Shown: positions 1 through 5,174 of the stretch, piece by piece | Layout: each line of letters starts with the position of its first letter | Position numbering within the stretch: position 1 is the first letter of the stretch | Source of the DNA: a virus | Reading direction: 5' to 3' (one strand) | Length of the DNA: 18,057 nt | UHGV virus genome: UHGV-0071990 | Program-made: the position numbers and the translations under genes | The notes under the pieces: generated by a model | What the model saw: the letters and a program-made list of their open reading frames with translations, nothing else | Told to the model about the DNA's origin: nothing | Database searches by the model: none

Positions 1-532
1 CACCATAACCGATAGCCCCCCTTCAGACACACCCCCCCCTCCCCCCAGACAGGGTGCCCTTTACCGGAGTTCCGGCCCCTTCTCAAAAGCATCAAAAAAA
101 GCTCGAGATCGAGTACCGGAACTCATGCCACCAGATAGCTCCACATCGTTTCCAATGCTTCGCCGCCGTGTGCGCCCTGTGGCCCACAATCATGCCATTG
201 GTCGTCTGATATACCTTCTTCTGCTCATTGAGCACAGGCGAGTTGTCGCACTCCTGCCTTTCTCAGACTCGACTTAGTTTAGATCGCTGTTCCTGGCTTG
301 CGTCAGCACACTTTCCCCTTGTACGCATACCCGCGCGCCACTTCGCCCAAAAACACCGAACCCAACGAAGTGGCAAAGACAACGACGCGAGCGTGAGTCT
401 GAAATGGGCACCAGTAAAAAAGGGGTTGCAGGCGCAAAAAGATTTGATTATCTTTAGACGCAAGAAAGCCGCCCCAATCAAGAGGTGTCTTTTTAAATCC
501 AGCCTACCAAGCAAGATTTAAATTTCAGACTG

Positions 533-557
533 AAAACCGCCCGGCAAGGCGGTTTTT
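533..557. terminator. GC-rich hairpin (AACCGCC-loop-GGCGGTT) flanked by an A-run upstream and T-run downstream; possible bidirectional intrinsic terminator
   Basis: Seen directly: aaaaccgcccggcaaggcggtttttgtctttc. It lies just downstream of the minus-strand HTH gene ending at 618 and at the end of the low-coding region 1-530. Confidence 0.5.
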
Positions 558-617
558 GTCTTTCTGGCGCTTACATTACACCACCATAAAACGATCCGTA
601 AAGGATCATTTGATCCC

Positions 618-878
618 TTATTCCAATTCTGACGACACTTTAACCTTTTCCCATACAAGGGTTTGCAGCCTTAACAGAATCGCATCTTTATCAAGGTGTG
701 AAAGATCCTTAACCATATCGTCAAACGACAGAACGCGAATGGCCATCTCAATGACCCTCGGCGGCTCACCCTTCTCATATCGCTTATATGTAGCCAACGA
801 TATCCCAAACTCTTCGGCGGCTCGCTCCTGCGTCCAGTTCATCCCACGACGCCATAATTTCAATTCGTAACCCGTCAT
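618..878 (-). CDS. XRE/Cro-CI-type helix-turn-helix transcriptional regulator (86 aa)
   Basis: Translation MTGYELKLWRRGMNWTQERAAEEFGISLATYKRYEKGEPP has the typical HTH_XRE signature. ATG at 878 is preceded by AGAGGA. It is divergent from the gene at 980. Confidence 0.8.
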   Translation of the reverse strand: MTGYELKLWRRGMNWTQERAAEEFGISLATYKRYEKGEPPRVIEMAIRVLSFDDMVKDLSHLDKDAILLRLQTLVWEKVKVSSELE

Positions 879-979
879 TACATCCTCTACCTTTCCCTAG
901 ATATTCAATAAATTAGACATAGCCACTCACAACAAAGTAAGATGTATTAACAATCCAATCTTTAGGCTTTAGGTAAAAA

Positions 980-1405
980 ATGAGTTCATCTGCTTTTGTC
1001 ACCGTGGTCACTGGTGTAAGTGTTTTTGTTCTAGGCCAACTCATCGTCAAAGGAGCTATTGAGCCTTACATTTCATTCAGGGAACAACTAGGGAAAATAT
1101 CCAATCTGTTATTGTGTAACCAAGCAAAAATAGTGAATTCTGGCTCGAACTTAAAGCCAGAAATCATTCATGATCTAAAAGATTCCGCAGCACAATTAAT
1201 GGCGAAATATTCCACTTTACCTTTCTATATCAAAAAGTTACATATCGGCTTTCGTCTTGTTCCATCAGCCACCGAGATTCTTGGGGCAGCTCGAAATTTG
1301 AACTATATAGCGTCAATACATGAAGGTAAGACTGGGGAGAATCCATCTAAGCATCTCGAAGAGATTGGCCATATGCTCAAAATACCAACTACCTATTCAA
1401 GCTAA
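980..1405 (+). CDS. Hypothetical small membrane-anchored protein (141 aa) with one N-terminal hydrophobic helix; low-GC cargo gene
   Basis: ORF has an ATG with an AGGT Shine-Dalgarno-like motif upstream. The N-terminus AFVTVVTGVSVFVLGQLIV is hydrophobic. Local GC is visibly lower than the flanks. I recognise no family. Confidence 0.55.
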   Translation: MSSSAFVTVVTGVSVFVLGQLIVKGAIEPYISFREQLGKISNLLLCNQAKIVNSGSNLKPEIIHDLKDSAAQLMAKYSTLPFYIKKLHIGFRLVPSATEILGAARNLNYIASIHEGKTGENPSKHLEEIGHMLKIPTTYSS

Positions 1406-1473
1406 CCCAATGTAAGTTATCGGCTTGCCCCACAATAAGTTATCTATCTTCAAACGCCCCTATATTAACACTC

Positions 1474-1498
1474 GCAAAGTGTCAAAATGACACTTTGC
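1474..1498. terminator. Perfect 11-bp inverted repeat (GCAAAGTGTCA-AAA-TGACACTTTGC) between convergent genes; hairpin, possible terminator or protein-binding site
   Basis: Seen directly. There is no strong T-tract on either side, so terminator function is uncertain. Confidence 0.35.
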
Positions 1499-1507
1499 GC
1501 ATTGTGT

Positions 1508-1888
1508 TTACTTAACGAGGAATAAAAATGGTTTATCGTTCGGCGGTGTAATCGGGGCTGGCTCGCTTTTGCTCATGCGATCAGTGTACCAGGCCAACTC
1601 CTTGTCAAAGTAAGCCTGATTAAAATAGGCCATGAATGTGGTTTCAAATCCATAACGACCGCTAATACGCAGCATCTGATTGCCGTTCTCTGTTTCCAGA
1701 TATACCTGGGCACGTTCCTGATTCTCCTTCAGCCAGGTTAAAGCCTCGTCGCACGAGGACACACGATACTCATCATCGTAGCCGTCATCGATGCGGCTTG
1801 AAGAAGAACGGCAAATCACGCCAACAGAACCAGCCAGGATAGTTTGAATTTTAAGGAAAGCGTTTTTGCGGATTTTGATCATGCTCAT
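1508..1888 (-). CDS. Hypothetical protein (126 aa), unknown function
   Basis: ORF with ATG at 1888 preceded by GGAGA at appropriate spacing. It has its own upstream intergenic region (1889-2007). No family recognised with confidence. Confidence 0.6.
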   Translation of the reverse strand: MSMIKIRKNAFLKIQTILAGSVGVICRSSSSRIDDGYDDEYRVSSCDEALTWLKENQERAQVYLETENGNQMLRISGRYGFETTFMAYFNQAYFDKELAWYTDRMSKSEPAPITPPNDKPFLFLVK

Positions 1889-2007
1889 CGGGTTATCTCC
1901 GGTTTAACCAGGGCGGGTATCGCTCGGTTTCGGGTATAACCTTAGGAAATTTTTTCCCATCTGTAAAGCAGTTTTATATAAATCTATAATTATATAATTC
2001 TATGAGC

Positions 2008-2035
2008 ACAAAAAAGCCCCTTTGCAACAGGGGCT
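2008..2035 (-). terminator. Rho-independent terminator for the toxin-antitoxin operon
   Basis: Hairpin AGCCCCT-ttgcaac-AGGGGCT. On the minus strand it is followed by a T-run (plus-strand A-run 2010-2014). It sits 16 bp downstream of the antitoxin stop. Confidence 0.6.
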
Positions 2036-2050
2036 TATCATTCGTTCTGA

Positions 2051-2350
2051 TCAGATGTTAAACGCTATTCGTTTTCCTGTGGGAAGCTCAACATCCAGGC
2101 TTAATTTGCCTCCCATAGCTTCAACGTAACGCTTTAATGTCGCCAGCTTTAAATCATTTCCGCGCTGCTCCAGCTTTGTTACTGCTGGCTGACTAATACC
2201 CATCGCCTCAGCAACCTGTTTTTGTGATAACTGGAGTTCTTCACGCATCATCTGCAAGCCGACCTCAAGAATCATCTCATCTGCCATTTCTTTAATTCGC
2301 GCCTGGCTTTCCGGTGAACGGCTGGCAATCACCTCATCTAATGTTCTCAT
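2051..2350 (-). CDS. HTH (XRE-type) antitoxin of a type II toxin-antitoxin pair, HigA-like addiction-module antidote (99 aa)
   Basis: HTH motif LSQKQVAEAMGISQPAVTKLEQRG. Its start overlaps the stop of the upstream toxin gene by 1 nt (TAATG). Toxin-first gene order is typical of HigBA-type modules. Confidence 0.8.
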   Translation of the reverse strand: MRTLDEVIASRSPESQARIKEMADEMILEVGLQMMREELQLSQKQVAEAMGISQPAVTKLEQRGNDLKLATLKRYVEAMGGKLSLDVELPTGKRIAFNI

Positions 2351-2697
2351 TACTTGCTCTCCAGTGTGTTCAGATGTGCTGCAAACTCATCCTCAGCTAT
2401 ACGCACCAGTTTTTTATAAAACCGCTTATCGTTACTTTTGTCTCCTGCACAAAGAACGATAGCCCGGCGAATCGGATCGAACGCATAAAAGGCTCTTATC
2501 GGACGGCCAGAAAACTGAACGCGAAGCTCTTTCATATTTTTGTACCGAGAACCTTTTACGGTATCGGCATATGGCCTGGGTAACTCAGGTCCGTAAACCT
2601 GTAGATTTTTCAAATCAGCCAAAACCTTTTCCTGAAGAGCGTCTTCTTGCTCATTTAGCCAGTCGTCAAATCGCTGGCTAAAAAGTACCGTCCACAT
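2350..2697 (-). CDS. RelE/ParE-superfamily (HigB-like addiction-module killer) toxin, about 115 aa
   Basis: Translation has the conserved pattern of this family (KELRVQFSGRPIRAFYAFDPIRRAIVLCAGDKSNDKRFYKKL). The likely true start is the ATG at 2697, preceded by AGGA; the ORF track extends to a TTG at 2703. Confidence 0.8.
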   Translation of the reverse strand: MWTVLFSQRFDDWLNEQEDALQEKVLADLKNLQVYGPELPRPYADTVKGSRYKNMKELRVQFSGRPIRAFYAFDPIRRAIVLCAGDKSNDKRFYKKLVRIAEDEFAAHLNTLESK

Positions 2698-2706
2698 GAT
2701 CAATCC

Positions 2707-2752
2707 TATAACCTGTGGTTTATATCACTAACTATATAACCCGTAGGTTATA
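2707..2752. promoter_or_regulatory. Two palindromic operator-like sites (TATAACC-n3/4-GGTTATA) in the toxin-antitoxin promoter region
   Basis: Seen directly: tataacctgtggtttata (2707-2724, imperfect) and tataacccgtaggttata (2735-2752, perfect 7-bp arms). They lie immediately upstream of the toxin start, as expected for antitoxin autoregulation. Confidence 0.45.
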
Positions 2753-2941
2753 ATTTCAAGAAAAACGGGGCTATTTAACATAATGGACGTTATCGGCACC
2801 ACCGGATCACCGTTCATTGTCGGATCTAAAAAATCCGCTCAAAAGATCATGTTTTCCTGGGCGTTTTCCACCGTTTTTTATGTTGCTTATTTGTTAATGA
2901 GATCTCGTTTTCAGTTTCGCCTCATTTTCGACGCGAAAGCC

Positions 2942-3232
2942 CTATTTTTGTGACTTTACTCCTGGCATATGGACTTCCCAGCGCCGAATCCCCATAGCTG
3001 CGCAAAAATCAGCCACATAATTCAATCCCGCCCATTCGCGGATACCACCGCGGGCTTTTTCAATGAAAACGGCAATCCCTTTTTTATTGAGAGCAAAAAG
3101 CCGCCAGCTTTTTGTCACTTCGTCCTGGGTAGCCACAACACAAGTGAAAGCTCCCATGCGATACAGGTCCAAGAACTCTTTGCGTGTTTTGCGTACAAGT
3201 TCCACAACAAACCTCATATTTGCATGTTTCAA
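2942..3232 (-). CDS. Hypothetical protein (91-96 aa), second gene of a two-gene operon
   Basis: ORF whose start region (TTG 3232 or ATG 3217) overlaps or abuts the stop of the upstream gene (TGA at 3229-3231), suggesting translational coupling. There is no obvious Shine-Dalgarno motif. No family recognised. Confidence 0.5.
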   Translation of the reverse strand: MKHANMRFVVELVRKTRKEFLDLYRMGAFTCVVATQDEVTKSWRLFALNKKGIAVFIEKARGGIREWAGLNYVADFCAAMGIRRWEVHMPGVKSQK

Positions 3233-3528
3233 ACATCTGTTTTGTTATCAATGAAGATTAATCCCAACCCAGCGAAGTAACACAGCAGCGCCCAGGCTGC
3301 ATACGGAATGCTGGATCTGGATGTGGACTCCTTTAACATCTGCCAATTGCGAACATTGCGACTGTCTTTTAGGCCAAGTTTTTTAGCCAACTGCGAGCCA
3401 CTCATTCCAGTCAGGCCAATGACTGCCCGAACTTCTCCACATGTAGGAGATTCCCATTCATCCGCTTTTTTTAAACAAGCCGGATTCAACATTTTTAAAA
3501 CAGTATCTTTATCCATAATCATCTCCAT
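3229..3528 (-). CDS. Putative HTH DNA-binding protein with a C-terminal hydrophobic segment (95-99 aa)
   Basis: HTH-like stretch RAVIGLTGMSGSQLAKKLGLKDSRNV and hydrophobic C-terminus IPYAAWALLCYFAGLGLIFI. The likely start is the ATG at 3516, preceded by GGAG. A palindrome TAGGAAA-tct-TTTCCTA sits at 3547-3563 just upstream. Confidence 0.55.
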   Translation of the reverse strand: MEMIMDKDTVLKMLNPACLKKADEWESPTCGEVRAVIGLTGMSGSQLAKKLGLKDSRNVRNWQMLKESTSRSSIPYAAWALLCYFAGLGLIFIDNKTDV

Positions 3529-3724
3529 TTATTACATCTACGATGGTAGGAAATCTTTTCCTATGTGGCAATAAAAATTTACCACGTTTCGTATAAGACA
3601 AGTTTTCTATGCCTAATAGGAAATGATGATTCTTACGTTTTATCACGTTCTGATGGCTACTGTGTGCGTATTTATCAACGTTTATTGATAAGGCTCGCCC
3701 CTTCCTCCTGCAAAGCCCGGCCGT

Positions 3725-3876
3725 AGGCCTTATTTCGGCCTTATATAAATTGATTTTGTATAGTTCGAAACGCGCCGTTTCGAAAAGAATGATCAGGCTG
3801 CTCCATGCCTCCGGCAAGTGCCGGAGGAGGTATATTTGAGCGTAGCGACTCGAACCGGCGCGAGCTTTAGCTCGCT
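3725..3876. repeat. Cluster of four GC-rich hairpins in an otherwise AT-rich intergenic region
   Basis: Seen directly: AGGCC-ttatttc-GGCCT (3725-3741); TTCGAAACG-cgc-CGTTTCGAA (about 3765-3785); CCTCCGG-caagtg-CCGGAGG (about 3808-3827); GCGAGC-ttta-GCTCGC (3861-3876). Function unknown. Confidence 0.4.
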
Positions 3877-3899
3877 GCAAGGGCGAACATATTCACAGG

Positions 3900-4159
3900 C
3901 AAAGCCTGCGTAAGTTAAATAAAGAAAGTCTTAATAAAAGAAAGTGATTTTGCATTTATTTGTTTAGTGCATCTATTATAAAAAACCATTTGCATATACA
4001 TATCAAAACTGTGGATAACTTAATTAGCCGATGCCTGTAAAGGCGATATTTACGCTGTGTTCAGGTTTAGAGAAAATTAACTTAGATTATTTTTTGAACA
4101 GATATTTTATTGCGACGTAGATAATCCTCCGGTAAAACCGGATTCATCATTCAGGTGGG
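3900..4159. other. Candidate plasmid-type replication origin (oriR-like): AT-rich region immediately downstream of repA
   Basis: Very AT-rich stretch located 3' of the RepA gene, which is where oriR lies in IncFII replicons. It contains a perfect DnaA box. No ORF of 60 aa or more is present. Confidence 0.4.
4010..4018 (-). promoter_or_regulatory. Consensus DnaA box (TTATCCACA on minus strand)
   Basis: Plus strand reads TGTGGATAA at 4010-4018, a perfect 9/9 match to the DnaA box consensus. Confidence 0.5.
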
Positions 4160-5008
4160 TTAATGTTGAAGTGATTTCCAGGTCTTTCTTAGCCTGTTAT
4201 AACGCTGCTCAACGAGGGAGCGTAAATATGCAAGGTCAGCACCAGGATACATGCCATCAGCAAACTCCTGGCTAACCTCTCTAGTGATTTGATGACGAAG
4301 TTCGGCCTCTCCCTTTTCCCGGACAAGACGCGCAGCTCTCTCCGCTGCTTTCTGTTTTGCCTTTATCTCTCTGGCCGTCTTCCTCTGACGCCATACATTC
4401 TCCATCTGCTCCTGAATAACAATACGCTTATAATCAGCCTCCGTTATCGCTTTTTTAAGCCGTTCGCTATTCTTCGCATTGAAGTAATTAAGTTTCTGGC
4501 TAACCGCACGTCTCCATGCTTGTTCAGTAATACCAACGGTTTCCAGCAGTTGATCACGAATCTCTATTTTCGCTGGCCAATACTGTTTATTCACCCGATC
4601 CCAGCGACGTTCATAATCAATAAAACCTAACGCTTTCAGTTGCGACAACGCCCTTGTACAGCGCGTTATAGACTTGTTCCCAGCTTCAGATACGGTAGAC
4701 AGGCCGCAAAAATCAGCCAACGCCTCAGCACTAGCCAGAACCCGCTTAGAAATGATGTTTACATGGTGCAAAATCGCAGCGATCACAGCATTAATCGCCC
4801 GACGACGATGCTCGTTTATCCGGCGCTTCCGCTCTGACGGTTGATTAACGTAGAACGCAACCTCACACGTAAGATCACGCCCATTAATGCGCTGTAAAGC
4901 ATCAGATAACACCAGTGGCAGCTTGTGCGTATGGTGCTTTGGAGGCTGGAACTCCGGCGATAAATTACAAACGTAAGCTGAACGTAGAGACGGCATTGGT
5001 CTATCCAT
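4160..5008 (-). CDS. repA: Plasmid replication initiator, IncFII RepA-family (about 282 aa from ATG at 5008)
   Basis: Translation contains RRAINAVIAAILHH...CGLSTVSEAGNKSITRCTRALSQLKALGFIDY and a basic, coiled C-terminus, which resembles the R1/R100 RepA1 protein as I remember it. The ORF track extends in-frame to 5170, but the ATG at 5008 gives the expected size. Confidence 0.75.
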   Translation of the reverse strand: MDRPMPSLRSAYVCNLSPEFQPPKHHTHKLPLVLSDALQRINGRDLTCEVAFYVNQPSERKRRINEHRRRAINAVIAAILHHVNIISKRVLASAEALADFCGLSTVSEAGNKSITRCTRALSQLKALGFIDYERRWDRVNKQYWPAKIEIRDQLLETVGITEQAWRRAVSQKLNYFNAKNSERLKKAITEADYKRIVIQEQMENVWRQRKTAREIKAKQKAAERAARLVREKGEAELRHQITREVSQEFADGMYPGADLAYLRSLVEQRYNRLRKTWKSLQH

Positions 5009-5018
5009 ATGTTCGCTC

Positions 5019-5046
5019 TTGCGTCCACGGAAAACCAACGTATAAT
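5019..5046 (+). promoter_or_regulatory. Sigma70-like promoter (-35 TTGCGT, 16-bp spacer, -10 TATAAT) directing transcription antisense to the repA leader
   Basis: Seen directly: ttgcgt at 5019-5024 and tataat at 5041-5046. Together with the terminator at 5105-5135 it defines a roughly 80-nt transcript. Confidence 0.5.
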
Positions 5047-5052
5047 GGGAGT

Positions 5053-5135
5053 TGTCGAGGCGCCCATGGATTGTTTTGTTGGTTTTCCGTGGATGTCGCA
5101 AGAAGCCCGCAGATTTATCTGCGGGCTTTTTGTTT
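5053..5135 (+). ncRNA. Putative CopA-like antisense RNA complementary to the repA mRNA leader (copy-number control)
   Basis: Promoter at 5019-5046 followed about 60 nt later by a strong intrinsic terminator. The unit lies 45-130 nt upstream of the repA start on the opposite strand, the same layout as CopA/CopT in IncFII plasmids. The transcription start is inferred, not observed. Confidence 0.5.
5105..5135 (+). terminator. Rho-independent terminator (GCCCGCAGA-ttta-TCTGCGGGC followed by TTTTTGTTT)
   Basis: Seen directly: a perfect 9-bp stem, 4-nt loop and T-tract on the plus strand. Confidence 0.65.
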
Positions 5136-5174
5136 CCATATCTGGTCAGTTTCCAACCAGACACCCACAATCGT

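Follow-up and report, generated by a model that had tools for sequence, protein, structure and literature searches.

A probable single-gene moron encoding an unnamed family of single-pass membrane proteins in an Escherichia coli phage-plasmid

The virus genome UHGV-0071990 is represented here by a stretch of 18,057 nucleotides (hereafter the window, numbered 5' to 3' on one strand), in which the segment 888-1461 is the sole DNA of the region under study (618-1888) that is missing from most related phage-plasmids. We conclude, with high confidence as regards its anatomy and evolution, that these 574 bp are a horizontally acquired moron with a single gene (980-1405, plus strand), whose 141-residue product belongs to an unnamed membrane-protein family. 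Morons are defined as extra DNA between genes that are adjacent in relatives, of unlike composition, with a promoter and terminator of their own, and expressed from the repressed prophage (PMC3594210).

The original prediction, made from this sequence without database searches, had combined this gene with two others, encoding an 86-residue XRE-family helix-turn-helix (HTH) protein (618-878, minus strand) and a 126-residue protein (1508-1888, minus strand), into one low-GC cargo island. All three open reading frames (ORFs) are present as described, the 126-residue gene being convergent with the 141-residue gene and a perfect 12-bp-stem hairpin (1473-1499) lying between them; the island, however, shrinks to 888-1461, the HTH gene, the 126-residue gene and the hairpin all being conserved backbone. 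The setting in accessory DNA of a temperate phage is borne out, the replicon being a 48-kb temperate phage-plasmid of E. coli, of RepA/ParA myovirus type, that carries RepA and tail-fibre genes. With a set of E. coli plasmids of 47-50 kb, which are circular and non-mobilizable, the region shares 98.5-98.8% identity, and the Yersinia phages vB_YpM_39, vB_YpM_41 and vB_YpM_44 are also relatives.

A variable cassette within a conserved backbone

In pairwise blastn comparisons with two relatives, L002 (which lacks the cassette) and L003 (Yersinia phage vB_YpM_41), homology stops at 887, 9 nt upstream of the HTH start codon, and restarts at 1462, just left of the hairpin. The common, empty allele, of which L002 is an example, has 8 bp in place of the 574 bp, with clean junctions. 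A joined-flank census of close relatives in PLSDB identified 12 carriers of the cassette among 59, the other 47, of which NZ_CP009073.1 from E. coli ATCC 25922 is one, having the empty site; in complete E. coli genomes the cassette was present in 13 of 5426, every copy being plasmid-borne, and it is intact and at least 98.6% identical across all carriers. The same empty arrangement is found in a distant Salmonella relative. Because it prevails both in most close relatives and in this distant one, the reconstructed ancestral order is 126-residue gene, hairpin and HTH gene, all co-directional and with 63-71 nt between the genes. Into this arrangement the cassette was probably inserted a single time, in a sub-lineage of the phage-plasmid, the insertion point having the intra-operon hairpin on one side and the ribosome-binding site of the pair on the other. 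Segment 888-1461 is consequently extra DNA, which close relatives lack at the same junction between two adjacent genes.

The composition of the cassette is also unlike that of the surrounding genes, though the difference is modest. The 141-residue gene has a GC content of 39.4% (36% at third codon positions, GC3), against 46.5% and 46.7% for its two neighbours (GC3 ~53%), so that the description of it as markedly AT-richer holds in relation to these neighbours; it does not hold in relation to the window as a whole, where GC content averages 42.5% and is equally low or lower in 31% of 426-bp windows. The difference has the same direction in seven other phage-type hosts of homologous genes, and in most phage hosts (lambdoid, P2-like, P1-like) the homolog lies 7-15 GC points below its flanks. 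Neither terminal repeats nor target duplications were found at the cassette ends in the window, only degenerate remnants (~892-913 and 1406-1433) of a plasmid repeat that is described below.

Variable presence across relatives had been anticipated, of the sort expected at a hotspot. Presence does vary, with 12 of the 59 relatives carrying the gene, but the variation amounts to a binary insertion or deletion. The only other allele seen at the site is a 318-bp non-coding element (L003 3383-3700), shared, judging by its span, by vB_YpM_44. It has 38-bp terminal inverted repeats beginning with GGGG (GGGGTTCCGTGGG..., 35 of 38 positions matching, ending ...GCTAAG) and a 5-bp target duplication (ATAGC), and looks like a Tn3-family miniature element (MITE) with no cargo gene. 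It sits exactly at the empty site, adjoining the HTH start codon and displacing the HTH ribosome-binding site. Since this sole further allele is a non-coding MITE, the site is variable but is no diversified, multi-allelic hotspot.

The 141-residue protein and its family

A single hydrophobic segment at residues ~5-23 (Kyte-Doolittle 2.23, against 0.73 for the next best window) agrees with the N-terminal transmembrane-like helix that had been noticed, and the product is predicted to be a single-pass inner-membrane protein, with a transmembrane (TM) helix at about residues 4-24 followed by a cytoplasmic helical bundle. Its AlphaFold2 (AF2) model has a mean local confidence (pLDDT) of 79.8 and a global score (pTM) of 0.72. 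PHROG 7512, a group without known function, matches the protein over its full length (E=2.8e-73), whilst searches of Pfam (no family at E<=1), NCBIfam and PADLOC gave no match, and the query hit none (0) of the families by which PADLOC-DB v2 defines known anti-phage defence proteins. The same three databases returned no family match for 68 diverse family members, which gave scattered single weak PADLOC hits only, and the PHROGs matched by the three proteins and by these members are all without known function. Searches of PDB sequences with the single sequence and with the family profile produced no meaningful match to a solved structure, a Foldseek search of the model against BFVD found no match, and searches of the literature and its supplements by protein accession, PHROG id and Yersinia phage name had no hits. 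The statement that no known family could be named has thus stood up to profile, structure and literature searches, and the checks of remote homology and structure that had been suggested revealed no housekeeping or structural phage homology.

The family is nevertheless large. A word-indexed search retrieved 36 clusters, all enterobacterial, and a profile search of 1.84 billion representatives retrieved 693 clusters (defined at 50% identity) at E<=1e-3, 126 of them at E<=1e-10, nearly all with members of 135-155 residues and a typical length of ~145; the host range covers several phyla and includes Acidobacteriota. PHROG 7512 accordingly covers only the enterobacterial tip of a larger family of unnamed membrane proteins of ~145 residues, invisible to Pfam, NCBIfam and PADLOC, which is delimited here. 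Among enterobacterial homologs dN/dS (the ratio of non-synonymous to synonymous substitution rates) is 0.1-0.5, and the family is under purifying selection. That the ORF at 980-1405 might be a chance reading frame or a decaying remnant, as low GC and the lack of any database annotation could suggest, is effectively refuted by these dN/dS values and by the existence of 693 homologous clusters alike in length and architecture, together with the confident AF2 model and the full-length PHROG match.

Conservation within the family gives some indication of how such a protein might work. In 119 family representatives the single TM helix starts from about residue 5, and lysine or arginine residues number 0.21 ahead of it and 2.29 within the 15 residues that follow; by the established positive-inside rule this bias predicts an N-out/C-in topology, with the bundle in the cytoplasm. 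Conservation in the family is highest in the TM helix (entropy 1.81 bits, against 2.0-2.6 elsewhere), and its T8, G12, F16 and Q20, spaced i, i+4, i+8 and i+12, map to one helix face. Outside it the only near-invariant residues are P29, L45, P95, N108 and L133; over the whole protein such positions are of the types G, Q, P, L and N only, and there are no conserved catalytic residues. A conserved TM face combined with so few near-invariant residues elsewhere suggests that the protein is not an enzyme and that its helix packs specifically against others in the membrane.

Distribution on mobile elements

Homologs of the 141-residue gene are always solitary, and lie on mobile elements or in cargo DNA. 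In four different lambdoid prophages (of Leclercia, of Atlantibacter and two metagenomic) the homolog is encoded on the opposite strand from the early operon, with the replication genes on one side and the DUF1367/nin/Q genes on the other; in a P2-like Chromohalobacter prophage it follows the tail-sheath gene and adjoins a HEPN gene; and in a P2-like Pseudoalteromonas element and a small satellite-like island it belongs to the integrase-proximal cargo. P1/D6-like phage-plasmids hold it between a humD-like gene and phd-doc. A further 333 plasmids carry a homolog (263 of them conjugative), with neighbours that include ParE/Phd, Abi_2, resolvase, microcin-C or sit genes and an EcoRII-C nuclease, and one chromosomal homolog is two genes away from a ThsA-Macro protein.

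On conjugative enterobacterial plasmids an intergenic repeat of ~45 bp brackets the homologs. Its consensus is TTAATyCCnCGCnCCAnC-TGGACGTTCAGGTnATTCTGTCCAG, with 6-bp inverted arms around a 14-nt spacer (CTGGAC-N14-GTCCAG), and copies were located in L004 (4941, 5987), L005 (3658, 4941), L008 (4042, 4940, 5489), L016 (3913, 5915, 6434, 7031) and L044 (~2245, 2760). The upstream copy abuts the conserved TAGACA promoter considered in the following section. The repeat likewise brackets an adjacent Abi_2 gene in L005 and in L007. A 50-nt version of it matched no fewer than 1353 PLSDB plasmids, where it lies mostly between genes. The repeat may be an operator, a recombination site or a cassette boundary.

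Expression signals of the cassette

A consensus scan places a sigma-70-like promoter of the 141-residue gene at 914-943 (plus strand; TAGACA, 18 nt, TAAGAT), which would drive the gene, followed by a ribosome-binding site, AGGT, at 971-974 (plus strand), 5 nt before the ATG. The motif TAGACA-17/18-TAxGAT recurs 59-66 nt upstream of the start codon in the four other, otherwise unrelated, homolog loci that were scanned, and was seen by eye in three further aligned upstream regions. The 70 nt upstream of the gene keep both this motif and a TAGGT block at the ribosome-binding site in eight enterobacterial loci whose flanks are unrelated, so that a putative promoter travels with the gene among unrelated replicons. 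A LexA box overlapping the -35 region of the homologs (CTGTCCAGTAGACAG) was considered and ruled out by eye, the spacing being CTGT-N7-ACAG rather than N8.

At the 3' side, the hairpin at 1473-1499 (z ~ -3.6) has weak U-tracts on both strands. It lies to the right of the junction at 1462 and so belongs to the backbone; in empty relatives it stands between the 126-residue and HTH genes, and it is partly conserved in the Salmonella relative. In the present arrangement it probably also forms the 3' end of the 141-residue transcript. Several homologs elsewhere are followed by terminator-like hairpins.

The 126-residue and HTH genes as an ancestral pair

The designation of the 618-878 product as an XRE-type regulator is upheld by matches to Pfam HTH_3 (E=5.8e-7) and HTH_31, both above the cut-off. 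The protein belongs to PHROG 6962, has sub-threshold similarity to RstR, MqsA and HipB, and is encoded in all relatives, whether or not they carry the cassette. The 126-residue protein, with an alpha/beta fold and no assigned function, had been counted as an orphan of the cargo; it is confined to the phage-plasmid lineage and is instead a lineage-specific backbone gene, the first of the ancestral pair. In empty relatives (e.g. L002 3107-3823) the two genes are adjacent on the same strand, with the HTH gene ~63 nt downstream and the hairpin between them.

This arrangement bears directly on the idea that the HTH protein is a dedicated repressor of the divergent membrane-protein gene, perhaps together with the 126-residue gene, in a regulated module for exclusion or abortive infection. 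There is a genuine HTH domain, and the two genes are indeed divergent across a 101-bp intergenic region (879-979). The pair, however, occurs without the 141-residue gene in 47 of the 59 relatives and in the distant Salmonella relative, and some 17 other contexts of the family include neither the HTH protein nor the 126-residue protein; small convergent ORFs downstream of homologs bear no relation to the latter. Moreover, the promoter motif of the 141-residue gene is conserved in replicons without the HTH gene, no palindrome or operator-like repeat was found in 879-979, such repeats being present upstream of the 126-residue gene, and a search for an HTH operator common to 879-979 and 1889-2050 found none. 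With regulator and supposed target inherited separately and no operator in the intergenic region that they share, we regard a dedicated repressor as very unlikely.

The regulatory sequence that is present lies on the far side of the 126-residue gene. Its leader and promoter region (1889-2005, minus strand) contains two TTATATAAWTCTAT repeats and overlapping palindromes at 1968-2005, and the leader, of ~95 nt, is structured (z=-3.8). The stretch 1889-2005 has ~90% nucleotide identity to the Salmonella relative, where the 126-residue homologs, from Salmonella contigs, are only ~66% identical. Since repeats and palindromes occur only upstream of the 126-residue gene, next to a conserved structured leader, 1889-2005 is a candidate regulatory element and points to regulation of the pair itself. 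The cassette parts the HTH gene from the 126-residue gene and from this presumed promoter; for that reason the HTH gene of carriers must, on the layout of the sequence, be transcribed either by read-through antisense to the 141-residue gene or from a promoter inside the cassette, where a scan picked out a candidate extended -10 promoter on the minus strand (1233-1206).

The order of the pair, with an unassigned protein first and an XRE-family HTH protein second, resembles that of toxin-first toxin-antitoxin (TA) modules. It could be, then, that the unit of interest is the conserved operon, as a toxin-first TA-like or regulatory pair, and that the cassette is a near-neutral hitchhiker splitting it. 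The conservation, common direction and spacing of 63-71 nt of the pair would fit such a proposal, as would its highly conserved structured leader, the weak similarity of the HTH protein to MqsA- and HipB-type antitoxins, the HigBA-like pair next door and the separation of the HTH gene from its presumed promoter by the insertion. It is difficult to reconcile, however, with the purifying selection and wide retention of the 141-residue family and with a cassette that is intact in all 12-13 carriers; the 126-residue protein, furthermore, shows no similarity to any toxin fold, and a spacer containing a hairpin is atypical for TA operons. We therefore consider it improbable that the cassette is a mere passenger in this operon.

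Possible role of the cassette

We favour a reading in which the cassette is a self-promoted moron whose membrane protein protects its carrier, an explanation that as a whole falls just short of an even chance. The 141-residue protein would be made constitutively in the lysogen or plasmid carrier and, rather than being an enzyme, would work by contacts between TM helices within or at the inner membrane. These contacts could be self-association into a conductive or disruptive oligomer, or the binding of a host or phage membrane component, and their effect would be to shield the carrier cell and the element from superinfecting phages, by blocking entry or by abortive membrane disruption. An anti-phage function of this kind (exclusion or abortive infection at the inner membrane) is proposed tentatively, with the balance of probability somewhat against it; the original suggestion of superinfection exclusion or abortive infection is in this sense plausible. 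Protection from phages is favoured because of the spread of the family across unrelated temperate phages, satellites and plasmids, because the gene sits where prophage-expressed protective genes typically sit, and because of the repeated occurrence of TA, Abi, HEPN, restriction-enzyme and Macro-domain neighbours.

Several points weigh against this proposal. No homology link to a defence, exclusion or Abi protein was found, including by PADLOC searches with 68 diverse members; the predicted fold is a generic helical bundle and is uninformative; and the cytoplasmic C-terminal domain is unlike receptor-masking exclusion proteins. The defence and TA neighbours are anecdotal, TA genes being common on plasmids. 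The putative promoter, from which the cassette would be expressed in the lysogen, matches the sigma-70 consensus at only 9 of 12 positions, and matches of this quality are no rarer than chance in the region; no strong terminator was found inside 1406-1461, leaving the cassette without one of its own.

The same anatomical evidence would equally suit a moron-type membrane protein with a benefit other than defence, such as an effect on envelope physiology or stress tolerance, bacteriocin tolerance, sequestration of a host cytoplasmic protein at the membrane, or maintenance of the plasmid or prophage. Many homologs lie in plasmid maintenance regions (par, TA, resolvase), by microcin-C or by ColV/sit genes, the C-terminal domain is cytoplasmic, no defence database has a match, and diverse moron functions are known (PMC3594210). 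Against such a benefit, the very different hosts and elements concerned (lambdoid, P2-like, P1-like, satellite, Chromohalobacter, Pseudoalteromonas, Acidobacteriota) argue for a target shared by many bacteria or phages rather than a niche trait, and neighbours of the Abi_2, HEPN, EcoRII and ThsA-Macro types recur. We judge a role outside phage defence to be rather unlikely, though it is a more serious competitor than either the repressor or the passenger hypothesis.

For the protective role that we favour, small inner-membrane exclusion proteins provide precedents, in HK97 gp15 (PMC3594210) and P22 SieA (PMC10883804). HK97 gp15, a YebO-like moron, is likewise a small single gene added between conserved temperate-phage genes, with a composition unlike that of its flanks and with its own expression signals, which in the cassette are putative; its product has a predicted single N-terminal TM helix in the inner membrane, and has homologs outside phages (PMC3594210). 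The 141-residue protein, unlike gp15, has no homology to YebO and no sequence relation to gp15 through Pfam or PHROG, and is much larger, with a cytoplasmic helical bundle of ~115 residues. SieA is a prophage-expressed inner-membrane protein of similar size (162-164 residues), which alone suffices for exclusion; it has three predicted TM helices and a conserved cytoplasmic-side motif, FxRYPxEAxxFNK (PMC10883804). The 141-residue protein, by contrast, has one TM helix, lacks the motif and shows no detectable homology to SieA, and so falls outside the SieA family. Lambda RexB, T4 Imm and Sp and similar effectors are further small membrane proteins by which a resident phage counters incoming ones at the inner membrane. 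From these the 141-residue protein differs in the number of TM helices and in topology, with no profile match; RexB, in addition, needs RexA, whereas the 141-residue family is always solitary, with no partner gene.

Morons with functionally uncharacterised products are commonplace in temperate phages. Were phage exclusion or abortion to prove correct, the cassette would represent a further single-gene system, very compact and easily transferred, which clinical E. coli phage-plasmids, ColV-type and other conjugative plasmids and many prophages already carry, with a bearing on the host range of phage therapy and on competition among phage-plasmids. The near-isogenic elements with and without the cassette constitute a natural pair. 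A bolder proposal, which we hold to be unlikely, is that the 141-residue protein is the prototype of a widespread anti-phage system made up of one gene and its single-pass membrane product (693 clusters or more at 50% identity, in several phyla), which acts through a conserved intramembrane helix face and spreads in Enterobacteriaceae as a promoter-bearing mini-cassette, bounded by the ~45-bp repeat that also brackets Abi_2; this would make it part of a new defence-gene cassette system on plasmids.

Replicon and sequence setting

Annotated relatives of the replicon encode ParA, an IncFII-type RepA, a HigB/HigA-like pair, and tail-fibre and assembly genes. In the window a profile match identifies the IncFII-type RepA at 4160-5170, and Pfam matches identify the HigB/HigA-like pair at 2051-2703, neighbouring the 126-residue and HTH genes. 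A pSLy3-like replicon was our first guess and was ruled out, pSLy3 belonging to the ~100-kb SSU5 supergroup. Upstream of the IncFII-type repA an AT-rich stretch (3509-4160), with a minimum of 32% GC at 3901-4200 and no convincing ORF, is probably a replication-control or origin region. An Rfam search of window positions 1-4300 gave no match.

To the left of the studied region, downstream of the HTH gene, a sequence scan located a bidirectional terminator-like hairpin at 531-558. Further upstream, in the closest plasmid relative, NZ_CP032259.1 (L001 3089-5058, just left of the start of the window), an IS21 element (istA/istB) is inserted beside a Rha-family regulator gene; other relatives have an ORF6N/Rha-type gene at the same place without IS21.

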